From the IMG/VR virus record IMGVR_UViG_3300021400_000128, positions 32,001 through 96,000 of that record: a stretch of DNA of 64,000 nucleotides; one strand, given 5' to 3'. The notes beneath the pieces are model-generated. The model was not told where the DNA came from, did not search any database, and worked only from the letters and a program-made list of their open reading frames with translations. Below, one piece after another: positions 847 through 40,622 of this stretch. The stretch's first letter is position 1. Each line of letters opens with the position of its first letter. The stretch is from a virus (Duplodnaviria > Caudoviricetes). A program made the position numbers and the translations under genes.

Positions 847-1737
847 CTAAATCGACTTTGCCACACACCACCATGCGGAACCTTCCCACCAGATAATCAG
901 GTTATACCGCTTGTTTTTTGCGGTCACTGCTTCCCCGACCTGTTTCACCTCTGTTGAGGAAAAAGTCACGCCGGTAAATGACGCGTTGGAAGTGAAATTT
1001 ACACCGAATATCACGCCCCGTGTGGCTTGGGGGAGGGTGATTGCCAATGATCCGATTGCGGTATCGTTTTCATATTCTGTTCCGCTTACTGCTGTCAGGG
1101 AAGTTCCAGAGAAGGTGGTGAAACTCACCGCTTTGTCTACTTCGAGATTCGTTCGCGCATCGGCAGCATTTGACGCGCCTGTACCGCCATTTGCAACTGG
1201 AACCGCCCCGTTTGTGTTTCCTAATCCAAGCGCATTCCGTGCAGCCGCCACGGTCGTTTGTCCTGTCCCACCGTTGGCAATAGGTACAGCCCCGCTTGTG
1301 TTTCCTAAACCTAAAGCATTTCGTGCAGCCGCCACAGTCTTTTGTCCCGTACCGCCGCTTTCAATAGGAATGACACTCTCACCGGATTGGAGAACTTCTT
1401 TCCAAGGGTATATCCATCCGTTGGAATTTCCTGCACGTCTATAGATTTTTCCTGCTCCGCCTGCCGCAGTTGGCTGGGTGAACCATAGTTGCGAAACATT
1501 CTCGAATGCGAACAAGCTAAACAGCATACCGTATTTTGATGGCTGATCGTTCAATTGGTTCGATTCCCTGTAATAACAGCAGATATTCCCCAGCGCAGCC
1601 CATTCGGCAGGCGTATCATTGGCAACACTTGTTATCGGCGCGTTGAATGTGGAAAAGGTCAAAGCGTAATTGACCACTCCTGTAGTAATCTCGCCAAGCC
1701 TCACCTGGTCAACTATATAAGTCGGATTCGATGCCAT
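847..1737 (-). CDS. Tail fibre protein with GGTG-x-AAARNALGL repeats
   Basis: Three GGTGxxTxAxARxxL fibre repeats, an N-terminal knob-like segment, and position in the distal tail module. Confidence 0.8.
   Translation of the reverse strand: MASNPTYIVDQVRLGEITTGVVNYALTFSTFNAPITSVANDTPAEWAALGNICCYYRESNQLNDQPSKYGMLFSLFAFENVSQLWFTQPTAAGGAGKIYRRAGNSNGWIYPWKEVLQSGESVIPIESGGTGQKTVAAARNALGLGNTSGAVPIANGGTGQTTVAAARNALGLGNTNGAVPVANGGTGASNAADARTNLEVDKAVSFTTFSGTSLTAVSGTEYENDTAIGSLAITLPQATRGVIFGVNFTSNASFTGVTFSSTEVKQVGEAVTAKNKRYNLIIWWEGSAWWCVAKSI
1150..1365. repeat. About three 84-bp imperfect tandem repeats in the fibre gene
   Basis: GCATT(C/T)CGTGCAGCCGCCAC and GTGTTTCCTAA recur 84 bp apart, giving a 28-aa repeat. 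Confidence 0.8.
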
Positions 1738-1748
1738 TTTCTTCTCCT

Positions 1749-2096
1749 TTACGCCAGGGCATTTGTTACAGCCTTCTGTACAATGAACTTTCCGCCGATA
1801 TAGTAGTAGACCACACGTTCAGACTCAACATCCTCATACAGTGCGATATCATACTCATAATTTCCGCAAGCAATATTTTTGGTATCTGCAGCACTAAGCA
1901 TGTACCGCACACAAGCTGTCGCGAAGTCAATAGAACAGCGAAAGCTTGCAGTAAGGACACGATCTTCTTTTGTCGGACGAATCTGACCCATCACCTTCAT
2001 TCCGGTCAGGTCAATGGGCTTGTCATCGGCATCAACGACATAAAAGCACTTGTCAAATGTCTCGCCTCTTCGAACTTCATAATCGTATTCGTACAT
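1749..2096 (-). CDS. BppU-like small baseplate/fibre adaptor
   Basis: RRGETF...PIDLTG...GQIR...YEYDI...GKFIV pattern typical of this Ig-like adaptor family. Confidence 0.7.
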   Translation of the reverse strand: MYEYDYEVRRGETFDKCFYVVDADDKPIDLTGMKVMGQIRPTKEDRVLTASFRCSIDFATACVRYMLSAADTKNIACGNYEYDIALYEDVESERVVYYYIGGKFIVQKAVTNALA

Positions 2097-6366: not shown

Positions 6367-9300
6367 TTATCTTGCTAACCATAATTCTCTTCTGACAACA
6401 GATGTCAGTTCATCTTCCACCATTGCCCGGAATGCGTCATCTCCAACGATTGTTCCGAAAGTGGTGTTGATATTCTGACTGTTGTCATTTGTTATCGTGC
6501 CGCCGCCGGAAGAGCCGAGAATACGGTTGTAAGATACGAATTCCGCACTATTCGATAACAGATTCAGGCTGTGGCGTGTCCGCGCGATCTCATCCATGAG
6601 TGTGTTATTGGAGAACACTTGCCATGCTTGAGATGTGTTATTCGTAATAAGCTCAGGCCCATGTTCACCGACAATGGCTGTACCGTATCGGAAGTTGTGA
6701 GTACCACCGGCGGCGGCGGTCGATGGTACATACTTTTTACTGCCACCGCCACCGCCCTTACTGCCACCGCCACCGCCACCATCCATGGAGGCAAGTACCA
6801 TAAGCGCATTTATAACTGCCCAGATTGCATCAGCCCACGCAAGAAAAGCTGTTTCTGCGTCATGTGCAGCACCTTCTAATGCGCGTGTTTTTGCTTCTGC
6901 GGCACTACCAAGTACAATAAATTTCTTTATTGCTTCCTGCCACCTGGAACCGAGCCAAAATTCAGCAAGTTCATTGAATTTCTGCACCGTGGTTGTCATG
7001 GAATCAGCCATTTTCTGAAGAACAGGGTTGAGATTTGAATCAATAATCGGAGCTTGCGCTTCTGCTGCTTTCGCAAATTCTTCAAGTCCGGCAATTAATG
7101 TTGCGCCAACCTCTTCCTCACCAAGTGTACCGAGTTCACCATCTTCGCCAAGCTCACCACCTGTAAGAACGATCATGATTGTGGATATTGCATTTGCCAT
7201 GATTTGCAAAGCATTTCCTAACGCAGTCCAGGAATCAATGATATTTGAATCAAATTCTGTTGTCAGAAACGCAATCAAGCCTTCAAGTAATTCAGGAGAG
7301 AACATTGATAATAAAGCAAGTATTGATTCAACATCTAATCCGCCGAAAAGCAGACCGAAGATTCCCCCCATGCCACCGTCCTCACTGTTCGCGGAAAGTG
7401 CGCTTCCTTCTCCCATCAGTGCGTTCAGTTGAGTAATGACATCCCCGATTATCTGTAATGCGTTCGCAAAATTCATCCATTGTGCTATAACTTCTTCGTT
7501 CAATTCGGCTGTAGCTAATTGATGTAATGCTGTGAAAATTCCGGTAACAGCAGCGCCCCCATCATCGGCTTCACTTAACACAGCCTGGATAGTTGCTACT
7601 GTTGATCCAAGTGTTTCCATTGCTGTGGCAAAGACGAGCCAACTTGCGATGCTGTTTTCATCAAGTTCCGCTTGCGCCATCTGTTGGAGCGTTTGTAAAA
7701 TGCCTGTTATTGCGGCACCGCTATCTGCACCTTCACCGCCTTCGCCTAAAGCTGTTTGGATGGTCGCGATTGCTCCACTAAGAGTTGTTATTGCATTACC
7801 AAAAGTTGTCCAACTGTCCGCCGATTCTTTATCAATTGTGATATTAGATAAATTAGTTAACAAGTTAATAAATTCAGTGGATATTCCACCGGTTTCTGAT
7901 GTACCAAATGCTTGGATCATTGAACCAACAGAGGCTCCAAGAGATGCCATCGAATCAGCAAAATCACTCCAGTTTTGGATGTTAGCTTTATTGAGTTCCG
8001 TTTCGGCAACACCTTTTAGCACGCCAAATTTTTGTTTAACAATATCGATATCTTCACCGAAATTCTTCTGGAATAAACCAACTGCATTACCAAGGCTTGC
8101 GATTACCTTCTGCATTGAATCCCAATTTTCGATTTTTGTTACATCCAGTTCAACATCTGCAAAATTTTTCAGTGCATTCTTCATTTTGTTGAACTTTTTA
8201 ACATCTCCGCCGAAACCGAGTATCAGATTACTCACAGCATTACCAAGTGAGCTGATTACCTTTCCTAATTCCCTCCAATTGCTGATTTGGTCACTGTTCA
8301 ATTCTTTATTAGAGGCAGTTTGTAAAGCTGTGAACAATTTTGTTATTGTTTCGCTGTCATTTCCAAACGAAGATATGAACGATGATATAGAACTACCGAT
8401 ATTTGACATCGTATTTCCAAAATCATTCCAATTCTGAATGTTATCCGTATTCACTTCAAGATCTGAAATGTTCTTCAATGATTCAAATAAACTGTATATA
8501 TCATTTCCTAATTTATTTGAAGCAGGAACTGCCATCGCATTTGGGTCTAATCCAGTAATATTAGCAGTAGAATCGCCGAACATTCCGGTAATTGTTTTTA
8601 ATGAATTACCGAGATCTTTCAACATGGACGAGAAGTCTTTCCAAGCTGAGATATTTTCTTGATTCAGCTCTAATTCAGAGGCTTCTTTCAGGATTTTAAA
8701 GATTCGTTTCGGTACTGTCAGATCTTCACCGAATCCGGTTCTCAGTCCTGTCATTGCAGTTCCGAGTGTAGAAAGGGCTGTTGACATCTTGTGCCATGAC
8801 GATGCTTTTTCTGCGTCGATTTCAATGTTGAATAGCTCTTGAATTGCTCCGATTGTATCTTCGTTTAGGAATTCGCTAAGTCCTTCAAGACCTTGAGCAA
8901 AAAGCTCCGACAAATCGAAATCTTCGCCGAAAAGCGTACCGAGAAGTCCGTTATTTTTCTTTTCTTTGCTTAATCGCTCATATTCTTCAGGATTAAGTTC
9001 TTTTAATCTTGCAAGCTCTTCTTCATATGCTTTTCTCTGTTCTAAATGCTGTTTTTCGTTCCAAGCCTGACGCTCTTCCATTGTCCAGCCTTTAGCTTGT
9101 GATGTTCCTAATGTCAGGTAGTTGTCAAGCCATTGTTGTTTTCTTCCTGGATCTTCAAATACATGCCACCAGTCAACGCCAGCCCATACTCCGCCCTTTC
9201 CGTCAAGCGTGGATTCAACCAACCCTTGCAGCATATCACTGTAATGAGTGGTTAAAATCTGATCTCCACTCGCAAGAGCTTTTTGATATTCAGCAAGCAA

Positions 9301-31514: not shown

Positions 31515-32612
31515 CTAAAACAATCTATTTTCTGCAATCACAGCCGCTCTATCAAGCACAACTGTATATCCGTTAGAAACTTCAATTACATTGTAACCAG
31601 CCGCTAATGCAATTAAAGCTTCCTGATTACCAACAGCTTTTTGAAGTGCGGGGGAGAACTTTTGCCTTATGCTCTGCAAATCATCATACTTTACAACTTT
31701 TGCTGTTTGAGGATTCAATACTGCATTCATTGAAAGACGACCATACCCCGTATTGCTTCCATAACTATGTGCGAAATAAGTACCTTCACCATAAACACTT
31801 CCGCCTTTTCTGCCGGCAATATAATTATAATCGCTTGTTCGGAAGGCATCAAAAGTGTTTGGATTATCAGCAGATCTCGTAAGTAATTGGCTCTTTGGAA
31901 TATTGTTATCTTTCATAAATTTATTAAATTCTTTTGTGTCCAATACAGTTGGTTTATCGTTTAATCCTAAATCATAGACAACTTTCTGAACTCGACTTTC
32001 ACCGCCTTTTTGTAATGGTGTAGGTAATCTCGTAATATCGCCTTTTGTTCCCATGGATGTGATTATTGCTGATGCTTTTTCGTCATCTGTCATATTCATA
32101 AATTTATTATATTGAGAATTATTATTGGAATTAGACCTTTGTTGTCTCAAAGTTTTCTTGTATTCAGAAAAACTTTGAGTCAGCATCTTACGAGCAGCAT
32201 CAGATAATGTTCCGTCTTCACTATGTAAAGATCCATCAGTTAAATCAATATATGTTTTCTTTCCATATAAATCATCAGAAGCATTCAATGAAGATGCATT
32301 AATATATAGCCTGTCTTTTCCGTGTTTTGTCCAACGCTTAAATCCGGCACGTTCTAATTGACTGATAAGATTAGTATCCTTGTTTGTTAACAAACCTGTA
32401 ATTTCTTTGTTACGTTGATCTACCAATCTTTGTGCTCCGCGTCCCCTTGCGTTTTGCTGCGCAGTCGCTTGTGCCTTCAATTTCCGTTTATAGTTGGTTA
32501 TTCTGATATATTTTCTTTTCATTGATGGCTTGCCATTATCACGTAATATTGGATTGCCGTTTTCGTCTTTTCTGATTACCATTACTGTTTTATAATCTCG
32601 TCCTCCACCCAT
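31515..32612 (-). CDS. MGG-leader protein with a putative ADP-ribosyltransferase-like C-terminal domain
   Basis: MGGGRDYK leader; LLTRS...GGSVYGEGTYFA...GYNVI...VVLDRAAV resembles PARP/ART-like folds; immediately after portal. Confidence 0.6.
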   Translation of the reverse strand: MGGGRDYKTVMVIRKDENGNPILRDNGKPSMKRKYIRITNYKRKLKAQATAQQNARGRGAQRLVDQRNKEITGLLTNKDTNLISQLERAGFKRWTKHGKDRLYINASSLNASDDLYGKKTYIDLTDGSLHSEDGTLSDAARKMLTQSFSEYKKTLRQQRSNSNNNSQYNKFMNMTDDEKASAIITSMGTKGDITRLPTPLQKGGESRVQKVVYDLGLNDKPTVLDTKEFNKFMKDNNIPKSQLLTRSADNPNTFDAFRTSDYNYIAGRKGGSVYGEGTYFAHSYGSNTGYGRLSMNAVLNPQTAKVVKYDDLQSIRQKFSPALQKAVGNQEALIALAAGYNVIEVSNGYTVVLDRAAVIAENRLF

Positions 32613-34344: not shown

Positions 34345-35055
34345 TCAGGGTTGAATATCTCCCGCTGAAATCCATTTTGTACTCCCATCTTTCCATTGCA
34401 TGAGAAAATTATAGGAAACAACTTTCATCATATTTCCGTCAAGATCAGGTATTTCATATACGTTTCCATTGACTTTTAATACTGTTCCTTCCTCTCCTTT
34501 CGGATAGTAGACAGGATTCATTGTGTCATACCAACCGGCTTTAACATCATTCTTTAGCTTCACTTGTTTGCCTGCAAACTTCTTTTGTAATTCTTTCAAT
34601 TTTTCATTTACGGTAATCATTTTTGATGCTTTTAGAAATGAGGCGTTTCGGATTTTCGTTACCTTTTCAGGTGAATTTTTTGCTATTTCGAGAAGTATTT
34701 TTCGAATTCTCGATAATTGTTGCTGATTTTCACCCGTTCCAAAGTCTCCGTTTTTTAATTTTTTATCTAACCCGATAACGGCATTTTTATCTCTTTTATC
34801 AATAGCACGTAAATATTGCAGAACAGCTCTTTGCATTAAAGGTCTCTCATTTACGATCACAGCATCTTTATCATTACTGCCATGAATATTATCGAAATAT
34901 GTCATAACAGAATCAGGATTTATAGGTTGATTAATAATTTCAGAAATCAGTCTGTTGGCTTCTTTTTCATTGTCTTTATACGATCCGACACGTACATATT
35001 TACCATTCACTCGCTTATAAAGTGCCGCACCTGCATTATCACGTCCGCCGCCCAT
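34345..35055 (-). CDS. MGG-leader protein of unknown function
   Basis: Start refined to MGGGRDNAG (GGTG RBS); directly upstream of portal. Confidence 0.65.
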   Translation of the reverse strand: MGGGRDNAGAALYKRVNGKYVRVGSYKDNEKEANRLISEIINQPINPDSVMTYFDNIHGSNDKDAVIVNERPLMQRAVLQYLRAIDKRDKNAVIGLDKKLKNGDFGTGENQQQLSRIRKILLEIAKNSPEKVTKIRNASFLKASKMITVNEKLKELQKKFAGKQVKLKNDVKAGWYDTMNPVYYPKGEEGTVLKVNGNVYEIPDLDGNMMKVVSYNFLMQWKDGSTKWISAGDIQP

Positions 35056-35056
35056 G

Positions 35057-35533
35057 TCACCACCCCACATCTAATCCTGGAAATCTGCTCATTTCTGAAT
35101 CAAATCTTGTTGACTGCGTTATCGTGTTTCCGTTTTTGTCTTTAAATGAAAAAGTCAAATCCATAGCTCCATTGTTGATGGTGGAGCTTTGAATCGTTAT
35201 TCCATATTCTGAAAGAAGCTTTCTTAACATTTGCGGGTGTTCAAACAGTTGAGATAATGCTATTCTCATATCGTTGTATTTCGGTTGTATTTGTGAATTA
35301 TTCTGCTGATCGATTCCCGTGTATTCGTTTCGGGCAGTCTTGTTTATTGTTACAACCATGTTTTTGTCTCTTGCTTGTGTAGCCGCTGCGATTCCTGCAA
35401 TATACTCATACGCAGTTCCTTCGTAAACTCCACCACGACCTTGGAATGAGTGCTCCGCGAGAAATTCATCGATTGCGTTCCTTGCGGTCTGTTGTGTCTT
35501 TTTACCGTCTCTATATTCTGCACTTCCGCCCAT
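35057..35533 (-). CDS. MGG-leader protein of unknown function
   Basis: MGGSAEYRDGKK; first gene after leader 6. Confidence 0.65.
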   Translation of the reverse strand: MGGSAEYRDGKKTQQTARNAIDEFLAEHSFQGRGGVYEGTAYEYIAGIAAATQARDKNMVVTINKTARNEYTGIDQQNNSQIQPKYNDMRIALSQLFEHPQMLRKLLSEYGITIQSSTINNGAMDLTFSFKDKNGNTITQSTRFDSEMSRFPGLDVGW

Positions 35534-35544
35534 ATGTCACCGCC

Positions 35545-35604
35545 TTAAATAAAAAAAGGCACCTGTATGTACAAAGTGCCTTCTTAGGGTCTGTTTTTAT
35601 TATA
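35545..35604 (-). promoter_or_regulatory. Late-leader element 6, upstream of the portal operon
   Basis: TATAAT-N6-AGACCCTAAGAAGGCACTTTGTAC-atacag-GTGCCTT, then a T-tract. Confidence 0.85.
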
Positions 35605-35648: not shown

Positions 35649-36308
35649 TTATGATTTTTTCGTCCATTGGCCGAGAATATATCGTTGATAGTCAGCTCCG
35701 ATATACATTGATTTGTATGATTCTTTTATGGTGTCTGGAATGTATTGATTGTCATCTATTGAAAAGTTGAGATATAGTGCATTCTTTTCAGAAGATTTTG
35801 TGATCCATTCTCTGAAAAACCAATTCGATTTATCAAGTGGGGTTGTGTTGAACCAGTATCGAGAATTCTTTATTGAGCTGCACCCAATAATATTTTCAAC
35901 AAATGATTTTGGTGTCAAGGGTGCTTGATCGAAAAAGGCCCCTGCAAAATTGAAATATTGTGCTTTTTTCACTGAATCATCATCGTGTGAATTGAACAGG
36001 TAGAATTGATTTGCAGTTTTATGTTTCTTGATTAGAACGTATCTCTGTTCTCTGTTGAAATCCATATTGTATTGAGTTTTTAATTCAGCATTCGATATGA
36101 TTTGTGACACAATATTTTTACTGCACGTTTGATAACTTAATCCACATAATGCAAAATCGTTATTATCAAAATTTTTCATTGCCCATTTGATAAATGTTTC
36201 GAGGATGATGGTGCTTTTTCCCGAATGAACCGCTCCGTCACATATCAGGGTTTTGAATTTTGTGTTCGGAAAATCAAGGATCTTTTTCTGTTTTTCACTT
36301 AGCTGCAT
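35649..36308 (-). CDS. Terminase large-subunit ATPase-domain paralogue, nuclease-less, with degenerate catalytic motifs
   Basis: Colinear with the TerL N-terminal half: GAVHSGKS vs GAIRSGKT, FFDQAP vs MFDEVA; ends at QRYILGQW. Confidence 0.8.
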   Translation of the reverse strand: MQLSEKQKKILDFPNTKFKTLICDGAVHSGKSTIILETFIKWAMKNFDNNDFALCGLSYQTCSKNIVSQIISNAELKTQYNMDFNREQRYVLIKKHKTANQFYLFNSHDDDSVKKAQYFNFAGAFFDQAPLTPKSFVENIIGCSSIKNSRYWFNTTPLDKSNWFFREWITKSSEKNALYLNFSIDDNQYIPDTIKESYKSMYIGADYQRYILGQWTKKS

Positions 36309-36345
36309 TGTTTTCTCCATTATTGTATTTCGCGCCAGGAGTGAA

Positions 36346-37584
36346 CTACTCGGCCATAAATGACCGAGCTTCTTGCTTCATCGCTGCGTCTTGCTGTTGA
36401 AAACGTATTTTCGAACAGTAGAGGGCGCGGGCTCCACAAGCGTTATTGGTTTGGCCAGTTCCTGACCTACCATTATTCAAAAGGAATTGTCTAATTCCTT
36501 CGTTTCTAATATTGACAGCAGCATTGATATCACGGTCATGATGTGTTCGGCAGTTATTACAAACCCATTGACGGATACGTAGATCTTTCACTTCTGGATG
36601 TAATGAGCCGCAAACTGAACAGGTTTGTGAGGATGGGTACCATTTATTGATCCGTATAAGGACTTTTCCCCTGTCTTGTAACTTATAATCTAAAAAGTTC
36701 AGAAACATTCCATAACCATTATCAAGTGTCACTTTTCCGTTACCAAAGCCTTTATTAGACATTGCTTTCATATTCAGATCTTCAACACAGACCATGTCAT
36801 ACTGATTGGCTATCTCAGCAGATTTCTTGTGAAGAAAATCGCTTCTTTGGTTTGCTATATGTCTATGTACTTTTGCAATTTTTAATTTTGTTTTTTTATA
36901 ATTATTGCTTCCTTTCGTTTTATGCCGTAATTTCCTTTGTGCGTGAGTTAGCCGCTTTTGCCCTTTTCGGAAGTATTTCGGTGATCCACAAGTATTTCCA
37001 TTGGAATCAGTATATAAACCATCCGATTTATAATCGAGACCAATTGCATTCAATTCTGGCTCGGTAACAGACCTTTTATCAGAATCATACTCAAACAAAA
37101 CTGAACAGAAATATTTTCCATCATTTGTCATAGAGACGGTTGCAGATTTTAGTTTCCATCCGTCATCAGGATATCTATGAAGAATAGCTTTTACCTTTCC
37201 GATTTTTGGTAATCGTATCTTTTTATTTTCAAAATCAAGGGATACTGTTCCATTTTGATTATTAGTTGTATATGAATCCCGAGATTTCTTTTTTGATTTG
37301 AATTTTGGGCGTCCGGTTCCTTTTGCAGTGAAAAATCGTTTGTACGCATCCTGTAAATTAAGCTGAACATTTGCCAATGCTAATGAATCCACTTCACGAA
37401 GATATGGGTATTCATCTTTATACATAGCAGGGGTTGGTTTTACAATGGATTTATCCTTTTTATAAGCATTTTCCCGTGTTGCAAGCATCAAATTCCAGAT
37501 TTTCCGACAACATCCAAAGGTCTTTGCAAATAAGACTTTCTGTTCATCGTTTGGATATATTTGATATTTGATAGCTCTGTTCAT
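36346..37584 (-). CDS. tnpB: TnpB RNA-guided endonuclease
   Basis: HTH N-terminus, IGLD, VEDL, SSQTCSVCG Zn ribbon, HDRDINAAVNI. Confidence 0.95.
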   Translation of the reverse strand: MNRAIKYQIYPNDEQKVLFAKTFGCCRKIWNLMLATRENAYKKDKSIVKPTPAMYKDEYPYLREVDSLALANVQLNLQDAYKRFFTAKGTGRPKFKSKKKSRDSYTTNNQNGTVSLDFENKKIRLPKIGKVKAILHRYPDDGWKLKSATVSMTNDGKYFCSVLFEYDSDKRSVTEPELNAIGLDYKSDGLYTDSNGNTCGSPKYFRKGQKRLTHAQRKLRHKTKGSNNYKKTKLKIAKVHRHIANQRSDFLHKKSAEIANQYDMVCVEDLNMKAMSNKGFGNGKVTLDNGYGMFLNFLDYKLQDRGKVLIRINKWYPSSQTCSVCGSLHPEVKDLRIRQWVCNNCRTHHDRDINAAVNIRNEGIRQFLLNNGRSGTGQTNNACGARALYCSKIRFQQQDAAMKQEARSFMAE

Positions 37585-37994
37585 ATTTGTACGTTGTTCT
37601 GTCTTTCGATATATTTGAGTATATTTTCTTCACTGGTAGAGCCAATTGTCTCCACAAAATAGCTACCATTCCAAAGGTGTCCTTTCCAGAGTTTGTTCTT
37701 TATTTCGGGAAATTCAAGCAATAGATGACGACCAGATATCCCTTTTAACCATCGGACAATATCTGTCACGGATAATTTGGGAGGCGAAGATACAAAACAG
37801 TGGACATGATCCATCTCCCCAACTTTCGCTTCAATGACACTAAATCCTTTTTCGTTTCCTATTTCTGCAAGTAGATCATATAATCTTTCGGAAATATTTT
37901 CATTCAATACTTTTCGACGATATTTTGTACACCAAATAATATGATAGTTGATGTTATAAACACATGTTCGTCCGTGAGTGTATTTGTTTGACAT
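37581..37994 (-). CDS. tnpA: IS200 Y1 transposase
   Basis: YHIIWCTKYRRKVL, DHVH, LWNGSYFVETIG, YIERQ. Confidence 0.95.
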   Translation of the reverse strand: MSNKYTHGRTCVYNINYHIIWCTKYRRKVLNENISERLYDLLAEIGNEKGFSVIEAKVGEMDHVHCFVSSPPKLSVTDIVRWLKGISGRHLLLEFPEIKNKLWKGHLWNGSYFVETIGSTSEENILKYIERQNNVQI

Positions 37995-38169
37995 ACATAT
38001 AGTATATCATACTATATGAGATAATTCAAATATAAGCAGGCTCAAAAATAGACTACACATAGTCAACGCTTTCATCTCCCACATGAATGAGGGAGAATTC
38101 CCGCGTCACCCTCAATTAAAAATTTTAGACTTTTCTATATTAAGCGAACATCTTTACATCTTGTAAGAA

Positions 38170-38198
38170 AAAAGCCCTCAGTTTAACGCTGTGAGCTT
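38170..38198 (-). terminator. Terminator after terL
   Basis: AGCTCACAG-cgttaaa-CTGAGGGCT-TTTTT. Confidence 0.65.
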
Positions 38199-38208
38199 AA
38201 TTTCGATA

Positions 38209-39489
38209 TCATGCCGTTCCTCTTACGCCCATATTGTCAATAAACTTTTCCCACGCGTATTCTTCTGCATCGGCAACATCATTGACCTTTGGTTCGTTAT
38301 CTAAACGAACATCTTTATTTGGCTTGCTTTCATCCCAAACCTGATTCTGCGTGGAGAATATCACCATCTCACACCATTTCATGACGTGCCATTTCCCCTG
38401 GTTCAGCATCCTTTGTTTAGCGTATATCCGTGTATTAATTGATTCTTTTCTTGCAATCGTTACACCAATCGGCACGCCTGCTCGTTTGATTGCTGCATAA
38501 ATCCCGTGTGTCAGTGTTTCAGGTTGATCTGTCCAACAATATGTAGGTTTTATTTCTCTGTCCTTATAAATCCATTGGTATTTCTTGATACACTTCTTTG
38601 CAAAGTCAACGAAATCGGTTTCAATTCCATCCGGAGCAACACCTGTGCTGTCTCGCATGAATTCTTCAAGAACAACCACGCCATTTCCTTTATCCATGAT
38701 CCCGCAGCAGATAAATACCGTATTAGAATGATTTACACCGAAATCAATACCAAAAGTCAGATATTTAATTCCTCTTGGGACTGCATCCAGTATCCAGTTT
38801 TTCGGATTGTTGGCAAACTGAGTAAAGATGACACCTTCAGCTCTCACCCACATTCCGAGAATGTACCGCTGATAGAAGACACCGCTGTACATAGACTTGT
38901 AACGTGCGATAATGTGTTCACTCAAACTTGGGTTATCTTCAAGAAGAAAGTGTAGGTATAAGGCGTTCTTTTCTTCTTTACCAAGTATCCATTCCTGATA
39001 AAACCAGTGATCAGGTTTGTCAGGGTTGCAGTTGAACCAATATTTAGAACCTTCCACGGAGCATCGAGCACAGCCTTGATCCACAAATGATTTTGGCATC
39101 AGGGCAACTTCATCAAACATGATCCCTGCCATCGTAATACCCTGGATCAACTGATAACTTGCTGCATCTCGTCCGCCGTACAAGTAGAAATTATTGACAA
39201 CATCACCTTTGCTGATCTGGAGAAGGTTTTCTGTCCGTCTGAAATGGATGTTGTATCGTTTCTGGGCATAGCGGAGATTAATATATGGCTGTACAATATT
39301 TCGGTTGCATGTAGAAAAGGTTTTCCCGCACAATCCGAAATTGCGTCCATTGAAATTTCGCATTGCCCAATCAACAAAAGCGACGGTCATGATACTTGTC
39401 TTTCCGGAGCGGATGGCTCCATCACAAATCAATGCATCGTAATTTGTGAATGGAAATGCCCGGATCATGTTTTGCTTTTCGCTTAACAA
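38209..39489 (-). CDS. terL: Terminase large subunit (PBSX-like)
   Basis: CDGAIRSGKT Walker A, MFDEVA Walker B, NCNP, GIDFG nuclease and C-terminal DVADAEEY; start refined to the TTG after AGGAG. Confidence 0.93.
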   Translation of the reverse strand: MLSEKQNMIRAFPFTNYDALICDGAIRSGKTSIMTVAFVDWAMRNFNGRNFGLCGKTFSTCNRNIVQPYINLRYAQKRYNIHFRRTENLLQISKGDVVNNFYLYGGRDAASYQLIQGITMAGIMFDEVALMPKSFVDQGCARCSVEGSKYWFNCNPDKPDHWFYQEWILGKEEKNALYLHFLLEDNPSLSEHIIARYKSMYSGVFYQRYILGMWVRAEGVIFTQFANNPKNWILDAVPRGIKYLTFGIDFGVNHSNTVFICCGIMDKGNGVVVLEEFMRDSTGVAPDGIETDFVDFAKKCIKKYQWIYKDREIKPTYCWTDQPETLTHGIYAAIKRAGVPIGVTIARKESINTRIYAKQRMLNQGKWHVMKWCEMVIFSTQNQVWDESKPNKDVRLDNEPKVNDVADAEEYAWEKFIDNMGVRGTA

Positions 39490-39506: not shown

Positions 39507-39567
39507 TTAACAAAAAAAAAGAAGGCACACGATCAAATGTGCCTTCTTAGGGTCTGTTTTTATTATA
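39507..39567 (-). promoter_or_regulatory. Late-leader element 7, upstream of terL
   Basis: TATAAT-N6-AGACCCTAAGAAGGCACA-tttgatcg-TGTGCCTTCTT, then a T-tract. Confidence 0.85.
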
Positions 39568-39574
39568 TCTGATT

Positions 39575-39775
39575 TTAGATATCAGTTGTTAATTCCTCGA
39601 ACAATTGTAGGAATCTCTCGTAGTCTTTTTTGATTTCTTCCGGGGCATCTGGTTTGAGCTTTTTCGTCTTTGAATCCCAATAGGGTTCAAGTTTTTCACC
39701 GAGCTGCTCTATTTCTTTTTCCTTTGCCTGATTTTTTTTCTGATGTTCTTTATATTCTTTTTCAGACTTTATCAT
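39575..39775 (-). CDS. Small partner (putative peptidase inhibitor/immunity)
   Basis: PYWDSKTKKLKPDAPEEIKKDYE; paralogous to 43041..43259. Confidence 0.65.
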   Translation of the reverse strand: MIKSEKEYKEHQKKNQAKEKEIEQLGEKLEPYWDSKTKKLKPDAPEEIKKDYERFLQLFEELTTDI

Positions 39776-39788
39776 AATAATCTCCTCA

Positions 39789-40622
39789 CTATGCTTTTAT
39801 TCCATATTGGCTTTCTAAAGTTTCAAACATGGCTTCCACATAAGCCTTTGAGTTGTTACTTGCATTATCGCCATTTGAATATACATCCGCGAAAGCTTCC
39901 GCAAATCCTTCCATCACATTTGTTTTCGCATATCGGGATATTCCTGATAATAATGCGTCTTTTGATTTTACATGAGCTTTCTTCTTTGCAAGCTTCCAAA
40001 CATCATTCAGAAATTCGCCAGATAATCTTTTTTTATATAATTTACTTAATTCTAAAAAAGTCAAATTGCCTTCTTGCATCCAATTGAAATAATAATTATG
40101 TATAGCATGACCAAATTCATGAGCGATCGTTGCTTCAGGTGTTGAATTTGGTGTATTGTAAGACGATTCATACAAAACAGGATTATCCTTCATCTCCCAA
40201 AACACAGGATTCAATGTCAATTTTCCGCTTTGGCTCATAGCGGCAATTGCATCATTTCGGATATCAAATTCTTTAATAAATCCTTCCATAAAAGGATAAC
40301 GTGCTTCCAAGTCAGATATAACGCCCATAACACGCTTTGCCATTGACAATTCAGTTCTGTTTATAAAATCATCCGATACTGCTTTATTACCGTACCTTTC
40401 ACGCATGACAGAAGCAAATTCTTCTTTTGTCTGCGTGTCGTTTATCCTATCTTTGAAAGTTTTTTCTGTCGGCGGCTGCTTTGCGGCTAACCGTTTTTGC
40501 CGTTCCGCTTCTCTGGCTTCCTGTCGCCTCCGCTCAAGTTCATCGATCTCGCTCTGCGGAGCTCCGTCTTGTATTGCCCTTGCTATCTTTTTCGCTAATC
40601 TGTAACTTGCCGATCCGCCCAT
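39789..40622 (-). CDS. MGG-leader zinc metallopeptidase (zincin)
   Basis: HEFGHAIH with downstream ISRYA...EGFAEAFAD. Confidence 0.8.
   Translation of the reverse strand: MGGSASYRLAKKIARAIQDGAPQSEIDELERRRQEAREAERQKRLAAKQPPTEKTFKDRINDTQTKEEFASVMRERYGNKAVSDDFINRTELSMAKRVMGVISDLEARYPFMEGFIKEFDIRNDAIAAMSQSGKLTLNPVFWEMKDNPVLYESSYNTPNSTPEATIAHEFGHAIHNYYFNWMQEGNLTFLELSKLYKKRLSGEFLNDVWKLAKKKAHVKSKDALLSGISRYAKTNVMEGFAEAFADVYSNGDNASNNSKAYVEAMFETLESQYGIKA

Follow-up and report, generated by a model that had tools for sequence, protein, structure and literature searches.

Separate genes that encode only the ATPase domain of the terminase large subunit (TerL), carried by phages that also have a complete terL, are a recurrent, convergent and already known kind, which arose independently in P2-like phages (coliphage 186), T4-like phages and Rak2-like phages. 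Here, we describe an addition from a PBSX/D6E-type lineage, a 219-amino-acid (aa) TerL paralogue next to terL in IMG/VR record IMGVR_UViG_3300021400_000128, the complete 136.9-kb genome, with direct terminal repeats, of an uncultured gut phage. The window is the whole 64,000-nucleotide (nt) stretch that was analysed, bases 32001-96000 of this genome; positions are given in window coordinates, and nearly all window genes are on the minus strand.

In coliphage 186 (NC_001317), the coding sequence 1215..1961 (NP_052250, 'similar to Orf12') encodes 248 aa that are 37% identical to terminase residues 125-371. Like the paralogue, this copy is a stand-alone ATPase domain of the phage's own TerL without the nuclease half, located between terL and portal in the same late operon, but it originates from a P2-type TerL and keeps a Walker A-like KSRQIGAT and the Walker B D-E, and no sequence similarity between the two was detectable. 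In Rak2-like phages, a truncated gp17-like gene, CBB_274, stands beside terL (CBB_275), as also in phiM12 and phiN3; it was termed unusual, and no function was assigned (PMC5259590, Buttimer et al. 2017). CBB_274 resembles the present case as a second, incomplete terminase gene adjoining the real terL, whereas its T4/gp17-type ancestry, its position upstream of terL and its occurrence in jumbo myoviruses set it apart, and it is unrelated in sequence to the PBSX/D6E-type copy. The T4 protein vs.8, which activates EcAvs2 (PMC13601566), is likewise a stand-alone TerL-ATPase-like accessory protein of 219 aa restricted to one phage group, but both its Walker A (GGRQSGKS) and its Walker B (IIDE) are intact, its gene belongs to an early accessory region remote from gene 17, and it has no significant similarity to the paralogue. 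Given this lack of similarity, and since the paralogue derives from a PBSX/D6E-type TerL, its likeness to the 186 copy and to vs.8 is convergent. The nearest solved structure is TerL of Geobacillus phage D6E (PBSX family; E 6e-40, 33% identity), which shares with the paralogue a predicted ATPase-domain fold including the lid, and differs by its nuclease domain, C-terminal arm, catalytic Glu, R158, R44 and K123, although the P-loop Arg is kept in some paralogue alleles. The isolated D6E ATPase domain pentamerises on its own (PMC5727402).

Recent work has further shown that host immune sensors read exactly the TerL ATPase domain. A 2026 paper on Avs2 and Upx (PMC13601566) reported that Avs2 and Avs3, as structures show, contact the terminase ATP site and the bound ATP, and that the ATPase domain suffices to activate Upx, with catalytic residues dispensable. 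The published stand-alone TerL-like proteins vs.8 and Ksap2 trigger Avs2 and do not block it, while the authors of PMC13601566 proposed TerL-ATPase-like small proteins such as vs.8 as possible anti-defence factors; no description of a terminase decoy was found in the literature searched. The present case extends these by evidence for selection in four alleles, by a set of phages with near-identical TerL that differ in whether they carry the copy, and by a residue-level account of which functions are lost (catalysis, arginine finger, DNA contact) and which parts are preserved (fold, N-terminal segment, lid). It also points to two distant degenerate relatives, of which one lies outside a packaging module.

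An intact ATPase-only copy of TerL under selection

The two TerL-like places in the 137-kb genome, one complete and the other the paralogue, are as follows.

35649..36308, minus strand: TerL paralogue comprising only the ATPase domain, 219 aa plus stop, or 4 residues more from an in-frame ATG at 36320
36315..36318, minus strand: Shine-Dalgarno GGAG, 6 nt before the ATG at 36308, read from the sequence and identical in the related contig L003
38209..39489, minus strand: resident full-length terL, 426 aa from a TTG at 39489 (gene callers); the open frame extends to 39528

The open frame of the paralogue runs from 36320 to 35649 (223 aa), and its second ATG, at 36308, is the likely start, giving the 219 aa also called by gene callers. 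BLASTP aligned the paralogue with the resident TerL at 95/215 identical residues (44%) with 0 gaps (E 2e-67), from residues 7-221 of the 223-aa frame to residues 15-229 of the 439-aa TerL frame, which are TerL residues 2-216, and both proteins open with (M)LSEKQ. The C-terminus lies 2-3 residues past the conserved ILGxW that closes the ATPase lid, indicating that the reading frame ends at the ATPase/nuclease boundary and does not include the C-terminal RNase H-like nuclease domain. No second nuclease-like match was found across the 137-kb genome, and only 115 nt, containing the next leader, lie 3′ of the paralogue. A model that had read the letters and reading frames of the window (hereafter the sequence-only reading) had described an uninterrupted frame of ~219 aa that matches the ATPase half of TerL and stops at this boundary, and both the description and the coordinates were right. 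While the resident TerL matched Pfam Terminase_6N (4e-11) and exceeded the cut-off of TIGR01547 with 156 bits, the paralogue scored 70.3 bits for TIGR01547 (cut-off 105), 22.0 for PF04466 (cut-off 23.2) and 18.1 for PF03237 (cut-off 22). It is homologous to the PBSX-family large terminase, yet stays under every curated family threshold.

We then compared alleles. Protein databases held just the cluster of the window and one cluster at 90% identity, and scans of IMG/VR with the paralogue and with two distant relatives described below (P0278 and P0322) as queries gave no further copies. Three further alleles, intact and of equal length, were present on contigs L003 and L004 (Logan assemblies) and L007 and L008 (metagenome; two short contigs), making four alleles in total, all intact. 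The alleles of the window and L003 differ by 27 non-synonymous and 20 synonymous changes, which gave a ratio of non-synonymous to synonymous rates (dN/dS) of 0.29 (binomial p 1.8e-4 against neutrality), and the pairwise values of the three full-length alleles were 0.24-0.31. The C-terminal 310 codons of terL gave 0.024 in the same comparison; the paralogue is constrained, though about tenfold more relaxed than terL. When neutral drift of the N-terminal half of TerL to 45% identity was simulated with indels disallowed, a mean of 9 stops accumulated and 0/1000 runs remained open. Taken together, the dN/dS values, the intact alleles and the simulations indicate that the gene is maintained and not decaying, and the neutral decay that would have spoken against the sequence-only reading was not seen.

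The same data bear on whether the paralogue is a functionless remnant, left by a partial duplication of terL or by a module swap and still awaiting decay. Such a remnant would fit the narrow distribution, in one small phage clade only, a GC content below that of terL (33.9% vs 42%), the tenfold higher dN/dS and the landing of an insertion sequence (IS) just upstream. However, 56% of the residues have changed without a stop or indel, the Shine-Dalgarno sequence and start are conserved, and the hydrophobic core is kept, with 56-59 of 94 TerL-conserved columns, mostly core residues, retained. Together with the constraint on four intact alleles of the same length, this makes a remnant highly improbable.

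Lost and kept residues and the predicted fold

To map conservation, 308 full-length relatives were aligned, the columns conserved in at least 80% of them were listed, and these were matched to D6E TerL residues (PMC5727402). The motifs of the paralogue are located as follows.

36213..36236, minus strand: degenerate P-loop GAVHSGKS, residues 25-32, with His in place of the cis-arginine in the window allele; GAVRSGKN in other alleles
36120..36140, minus strand: hypervariable loop, residues 57-63, in place of the G-K-T motif conserved in TerL; LSYQTCS, ITQYSCI and YNYQTCI in three alleles
35925..35930, minus strand: Walker B Asp127-Gln128; the catalytic Glu is Gln in every allele, and the Asp is kept
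35838..35849, minus strand: C-motif NTTP, where TerL has NCNP; the counterpart of D6E N169, the first Asn, is retained

The motif changes first noticed from the letters, GAIRSGKT to GAVHSGKS, MFDEVA to FFDQAP and NCNP to NTTP, were exact. The Walker B D and E are each 100% conserved among the 308 relatives. At the P-loop, the Arg (D6E R44) is His in the window allele and Arg in the others, the Ser/Thr is Ser in the window allele and Asn in the others (GAVRSGKN in L003 and L007), and the Lys (D6E K47) is retained in all alleles. Further losses were observed outside the ATP-binding motifs: the trans-arginine finger (D6E R158), an Arg in 99% of the relatives, is Cys143 (35880..35882, minus strand), the DNA-tunnel Lys (D6E K123) is His108, the G-K-T conserved after strand 2 of TerL is G-L-S, and the I-Q-G-x-T before Walker B is A-Q-Y-F-N. 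Besides the core columns, the paralogue keeps the lid Tyr (D6E Y213) and the N-terminal S-x-K-Q. By segment, it is 50% identical to TerL in the N-terminal part and 51% in the lid, compared with 43% and 53% in real TerLs of equal overall divergence, while the catalytic and DNA-contacting middle is only 36% identical compared with 45%. Judged from these residues, the window allele might still bind nucleotide, while no allele should be able to hydrolyse ATP or to activate a neighbouring subunit. The earlier description of an intact but probably catalytically dead protein is thereby strengthened, since the trans-arginine finger and the DNA-tunnel lysine are lost as well and the gene is under purifying selection.

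An AlphaFold2 model built on an 88-sequence alignment reached a predicted local distance difference test score (pLDDT) of 96.7, the alignment consisting mostly of real TerLs, which favours a high-confidence TerL fold; the single-sequence run gave a pLDDT of 37. Foldseek superposed the model on the D6E TerL ATPase domain (5OE8), lid included, with a template modelling (TM) score of 0.94 and a root-mean-square deviation of 1.6 Å. The model thus predicts the complete TerL ATPase fold of the additional strand, catalytic glutamate (ASCE) class, including the lid. Taken together with the selection data, the paralogue is very probably a folded, selected pseudo-ATPase.

The differences between alleles are not evenly spread. 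Between the window and L003, 11/21 amino-acid differences fall within 16 residues (28-33, 57-63 and 130-132), which correspond to the P-loop, the former G-K-T loop and the stretch just past Walker B and line the former ATP pocket. The dN/dS was 0.46-0.8 inside these loops and 0.16-0.21 outside, for segments that were defined post hoc and hold few sites, from which relaxation and diversifying selection are not distinguishable. In residues 57-63, S-Y-Q-T in one allele faces T-Q-Y-S in another, an apparent tetrapeptide reversal, with Y-N-Y-Q-T in the third; it arises by several separate nucleotide changes and not by a DNA inversion.

We further surveyed ~400 retrieved TerL relatives for motifs that are degenerate over a fully covered ATPase domain. 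Apart from one probable split TerL with D-D and two relatives whose P-loops vary slightly, degenerate Walker A/B motifs were confined to four stand-alone proteins of 218-221 aa with the same C-terminal boundary: P0278, P0322 and the two allele clusters of the paralogue. The survey gave two distant stand-alone homologues, P0278 and P0322, both catalytically degenerate.

Window paralogue allele: P-loop GAVHSGKS, Walker B position D-Q, C-motif NTTP
P0278: P-loop GAPRSGNL, Walker B position I-N, C-motif HSIP
P0322: P-loop GSNYSGHA, Walker B position Y-D, C-motif VSYP

The three lineages are 34-40% identical to each other and cluster on the tree with a Shimodaira-Hasegawa-like approximate likelihood ratio (SH-aLRT) support of 99 (98-99 in leave-one-out runs), and derived residues including DFA[LM]C, H161N and C154[TS] are common to them. 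All are long branches, and the cluster may be due to long-branch attraction. P0278 lies on a 795-bp contig. P0322 (218 aa) stands between a 54-aa gene and a MazG-like pyrophosphatase gene (L016 2709-3903), linked to them by translational coupling; Macro, DUF5131 and Lar-like genes also belong to this block, which lies on a 44-kb phage contig unrelated to the window phage.

Several other candidates were set aside. P0367 (218 aa, D-D) is probably part of a split terL of 218 + 61 + 307 aa; P0321 and P0323 are fragments or frameshifted real TerLs; and the ESM Atlas clusters of TerL-like proteins of ~216-246 aa are probably fragments. The probable split large terminase occupies L017 8001-9776 and is also found on L018 and L019, with a layout conserved in five contigs.

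Transcription unit, distribution and possible partners

The gene order and the putative transcription signals around the paralogue are as follows.

39519..39555, minus strand: leader box, hairpin and U-run before terL (-20.5 kcal/mol, z -6.7); predicted start of the unit holding terL and the paralogue
38166..38198, minus strand: weak hairpin and U-run after the terL stop; whole-stretch minimum free energy -12.8 kcal/mol, z -1.5, matched by shuffles
35550..35592, minus strand: leader box and hairpin right after the paralogue stop (-14.7 kcal/mol, z -3.6); predicted opening of the next unit (158-aa MGGS gene)
Order around terL, minus strand: leader box and hairpin 39555-39519, terL 39489-38209, IS200/IS605 element 38114-36340, paralogue 36308-35649
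Order downstream, minus strand: second leader box and hairpin 35592-35550, 158-aa gene, 241-aa gene, portal 34331-32625

The invariant leader box AGACCCTAAGAAGGC occurs 11 times in the window, compared with 0.03 expected by chance. One copy precedes terL (39541-39555), one follows the paralogue (35578-35592), and none lies between, which places the paralogue in the transcription unit of terL. The sequence-only reading was therefore right that the paralogue has no late leader of its own, as no box stands in front of it, while its statement that the gene lies after the terL terminator fared less well: a hairpin with a U-run does exist there, but its z is -1.5, a pattern scan called no terminator after terL, and the U-run is interrupted in L003.

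The paralogue is an accessory gene. It is absent within 6 kb of terL in relatives whose TerL is 92% (L009/L010, 14 contigs), 83% (L011/L012) and 80% (L014) identical to that of the window phage. Given that it lacks catalysis, yet is folded and selected, it must work by binding. We therefore read it, with a probability of about one in two, as a TerL ATPase domain that has lost catalysis but is kept by selection, encoded by an accessory gene on the predicted late transcript of terL and acting by binding, not by hydrolysis or DNA movement. Its partner would be something that normally contacts the TerL ATPase domain. The packaging machinery is the partner we tentatively prefer, although we hold this part at somewhat less than even odds. 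In this mechanism, the paralogue would most likely join TerL itself, or the partners with which TerL assembles, and cap or tune terminase oligomers as a subunit that does not hydrolyse ATP; devoid of both catalytic Glu and arginine finger, such a subunit would shut down two adjacent active sites of a ring. Pentamer formation by the isolated D6E ATPase domain makes it plausible that a stand-alone domain can oligomerise, and this, the preserved fold, N-terminal segment and lid, and the predicted co-transcription with terL are the grounds for a packaging partner. The recurrence of the layout terL, ATPase-only copy, portal in coliphage 186 also counts in favour of the binding role.

Several points weigh against this reading. 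Relatives with an 80-92% identical TerL package their DNA without the paralogue, indicating that it is not a core part of the motor. The position beside terL may merely reflect birth by tandem duplication, and in the window phage the IS element now parts the two genes. A ring poison made together with the phage's own TerL would need a means to spare its own phage. P0322 lies among small accessory genes, with no terL found in the available 2.8 kb upstream or 8 kb downstream, and the fold prediction leans on the TerL-rich alignment mentioned above.

Given that host sensors read the TerL ATPase domain, the paralogue might instead be a counter-defence or immune-evasion factor that binds Avs1-3, Upx or similar host sensors without activating them, or shields TerL from them, with the fast loops as the contested surface. 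The varying presence among close relatives, in a slot that holds zincin-like and MGGS-leader genes in relatives, would suit such a role, as would the concentration of allele differences in the former ATP pocket, the surface read by Avs2 and Avs3 (PMC13601566), the coupling of P0322 to a MazG-like gene in a block with Macro and Lar-like genes, and the anti-defence role suggested for vs.8-like small proteins (PMC13601566). However, vs.8 and Ksap2 trigger Avs2 and do not block it, and the bound ATP and active-site residues contacted by Avs2 and Avs3 are missing here, so that weak binding is expected. Since these sensors read the ATP site, a copy with a ruined site is likelier to be invisible to them than to soak them up, and 'stealth' accounts for the dead motifs as well as 'decoy' does. 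A disused pocket would also change faster by simple relaxation, the hot loops were defined after viewing the data, and PADLOC gave no hit. We regard the counter-defence role as unlikely. In a broader version, P0278, P0322 and the paralogue would belong to a single old family of mimics of the TerL ATPase that phages keep to interfere with host terminase-ATPase sensors; the pocket loops would be under arms-race selection, and the loss of ATP binding would turn a vs.8-like trigger into a silent blocker. This version appears quite unlikely.

The origin of the paralogue bears on a further alternative. It is about equidistant from every sampled TerL, its own included (41-47% identity), with the resident clade among the closest (43-47%), and on the tree it sits on a very long stem outside the resident TerL clade. 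A full-length donor TerL closer than the resident one was sought in a word search of 5.8 billion proteins and an exhaustive scan of 1.84 billion representatives, and none exceeded 46% identity. Recent duplication of the resident terL was disfavoured, as forcing the paralogue into the resident crown clade cost 22 log-likelihood units, with a borderline approximately unbiased (AU) test p of 0.048. No sign of gene conversion with terL was seen; codon identity at identical residues was 0.33-0.7, with third positions seemingly saturated. The paralogue may stem from an old duplication that most relatives later lost, or may have been captured from an unsampled phage. Between the window and L003, synonymous divergence was 0.16-0.19 in the paralogue (35649-36308) and 0.50 in terL (38209-39141), which suggests a recombination mosaic with a junction near the terL end; both this lower divergence and the lower GC content of the paralogue fit a mosaic history. 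The first 60 nt past the terL stop are identical in the window and L003.

In the alternative in question, the paralogue would poison the terminase of competing phages in a dominant-negative manner, entering a rival TerL ring, stalling it and thereby excluding the rival. Missing the catalytic Glu as well as the arginine finger, it would put two adjacent ring sites out of action, the fold and lid are kept, and the distribution is that of an accessory gene. Nevertheless, the equidistance from all sampled TerLs leaves no rival target apparent, and predicted late expression with its own TerL would be poor timing for exclusion in a phage whose genome has direct terminal repeats and for which the window gives no hint of lysogeny. 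Moreover, no precedent for a terminase poison was found in the literature searched, and we consider this role improbable. Both functions proposed by the sequence-only reading, a decoy for Avs and a dominant-negative packaging inhibitor, are predicted roles only, and neither is favoured by the data. If the role of the paralogue does turn out to be immune interference or motor regulation, the same probably holds for the ATPase-only copies of the other lineages.

The insertion element and the genes flanking terL

The gap between terL and the paralogue is occupied by a mobile element.

36340..38114, minus strand: IS200/IS605-family element, 1,775 bp, with tnpA at 37994..37581 (137 aa) and tnpB at 37584..36346 (412 aa)

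The element, which matches Pfam Y1_Tnp, OrfB_IS605 and Cas12f1-like_TNB, is complete and lies within the late packaging operon, inserted after TTTTTAAT and 31 nt upstream of the paralogue ATG at 36308. Its right end is just 6 nt beyond the tnpB stop, and the adjoining DNA (CCTGGCGCGAAATAC...) reaches the ribosome-binding site of the paralogue. It is absent in the relatives L003 and L004, where the empty site is preserved; in L003, the gap between terL and the paralogue is 113 nt, and the empty site reads ...AAAATTTTTAAT|CCTGGCGCG..., with both flanks matching the window. The survival of the empty site in a relative indicates that the insertion is recent. The sequence-only reading had missed this insertion, and likewise the earlier copies of phage 186, Rak2-like phages and T4.

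The genes flanking terL are evidently shuffled among relatives. A zincin-like HEFGH protein with a 66-aa partner is encoded upstream of the window terL (39575-39775 and 39789-40622), while in L009, the relative with a 92% identical TerL, a zincin-like gene (7291-8070) lies directly downstream of terL, in the slot after it. A set of genes around terL and portal has MGG[SG]xxY[RK] N-termini in common (window 35057-35533, 34345-35070, 31515-32612 and 39789-40622; L003 1836-3364). Their C-terminal parts are variable and unrelated, among them a zincin-like HExxH part and an ART-like part, and the repertoire differs between the window and L003; these genes look like cargo proteins with a common N-terminal targeting leader.

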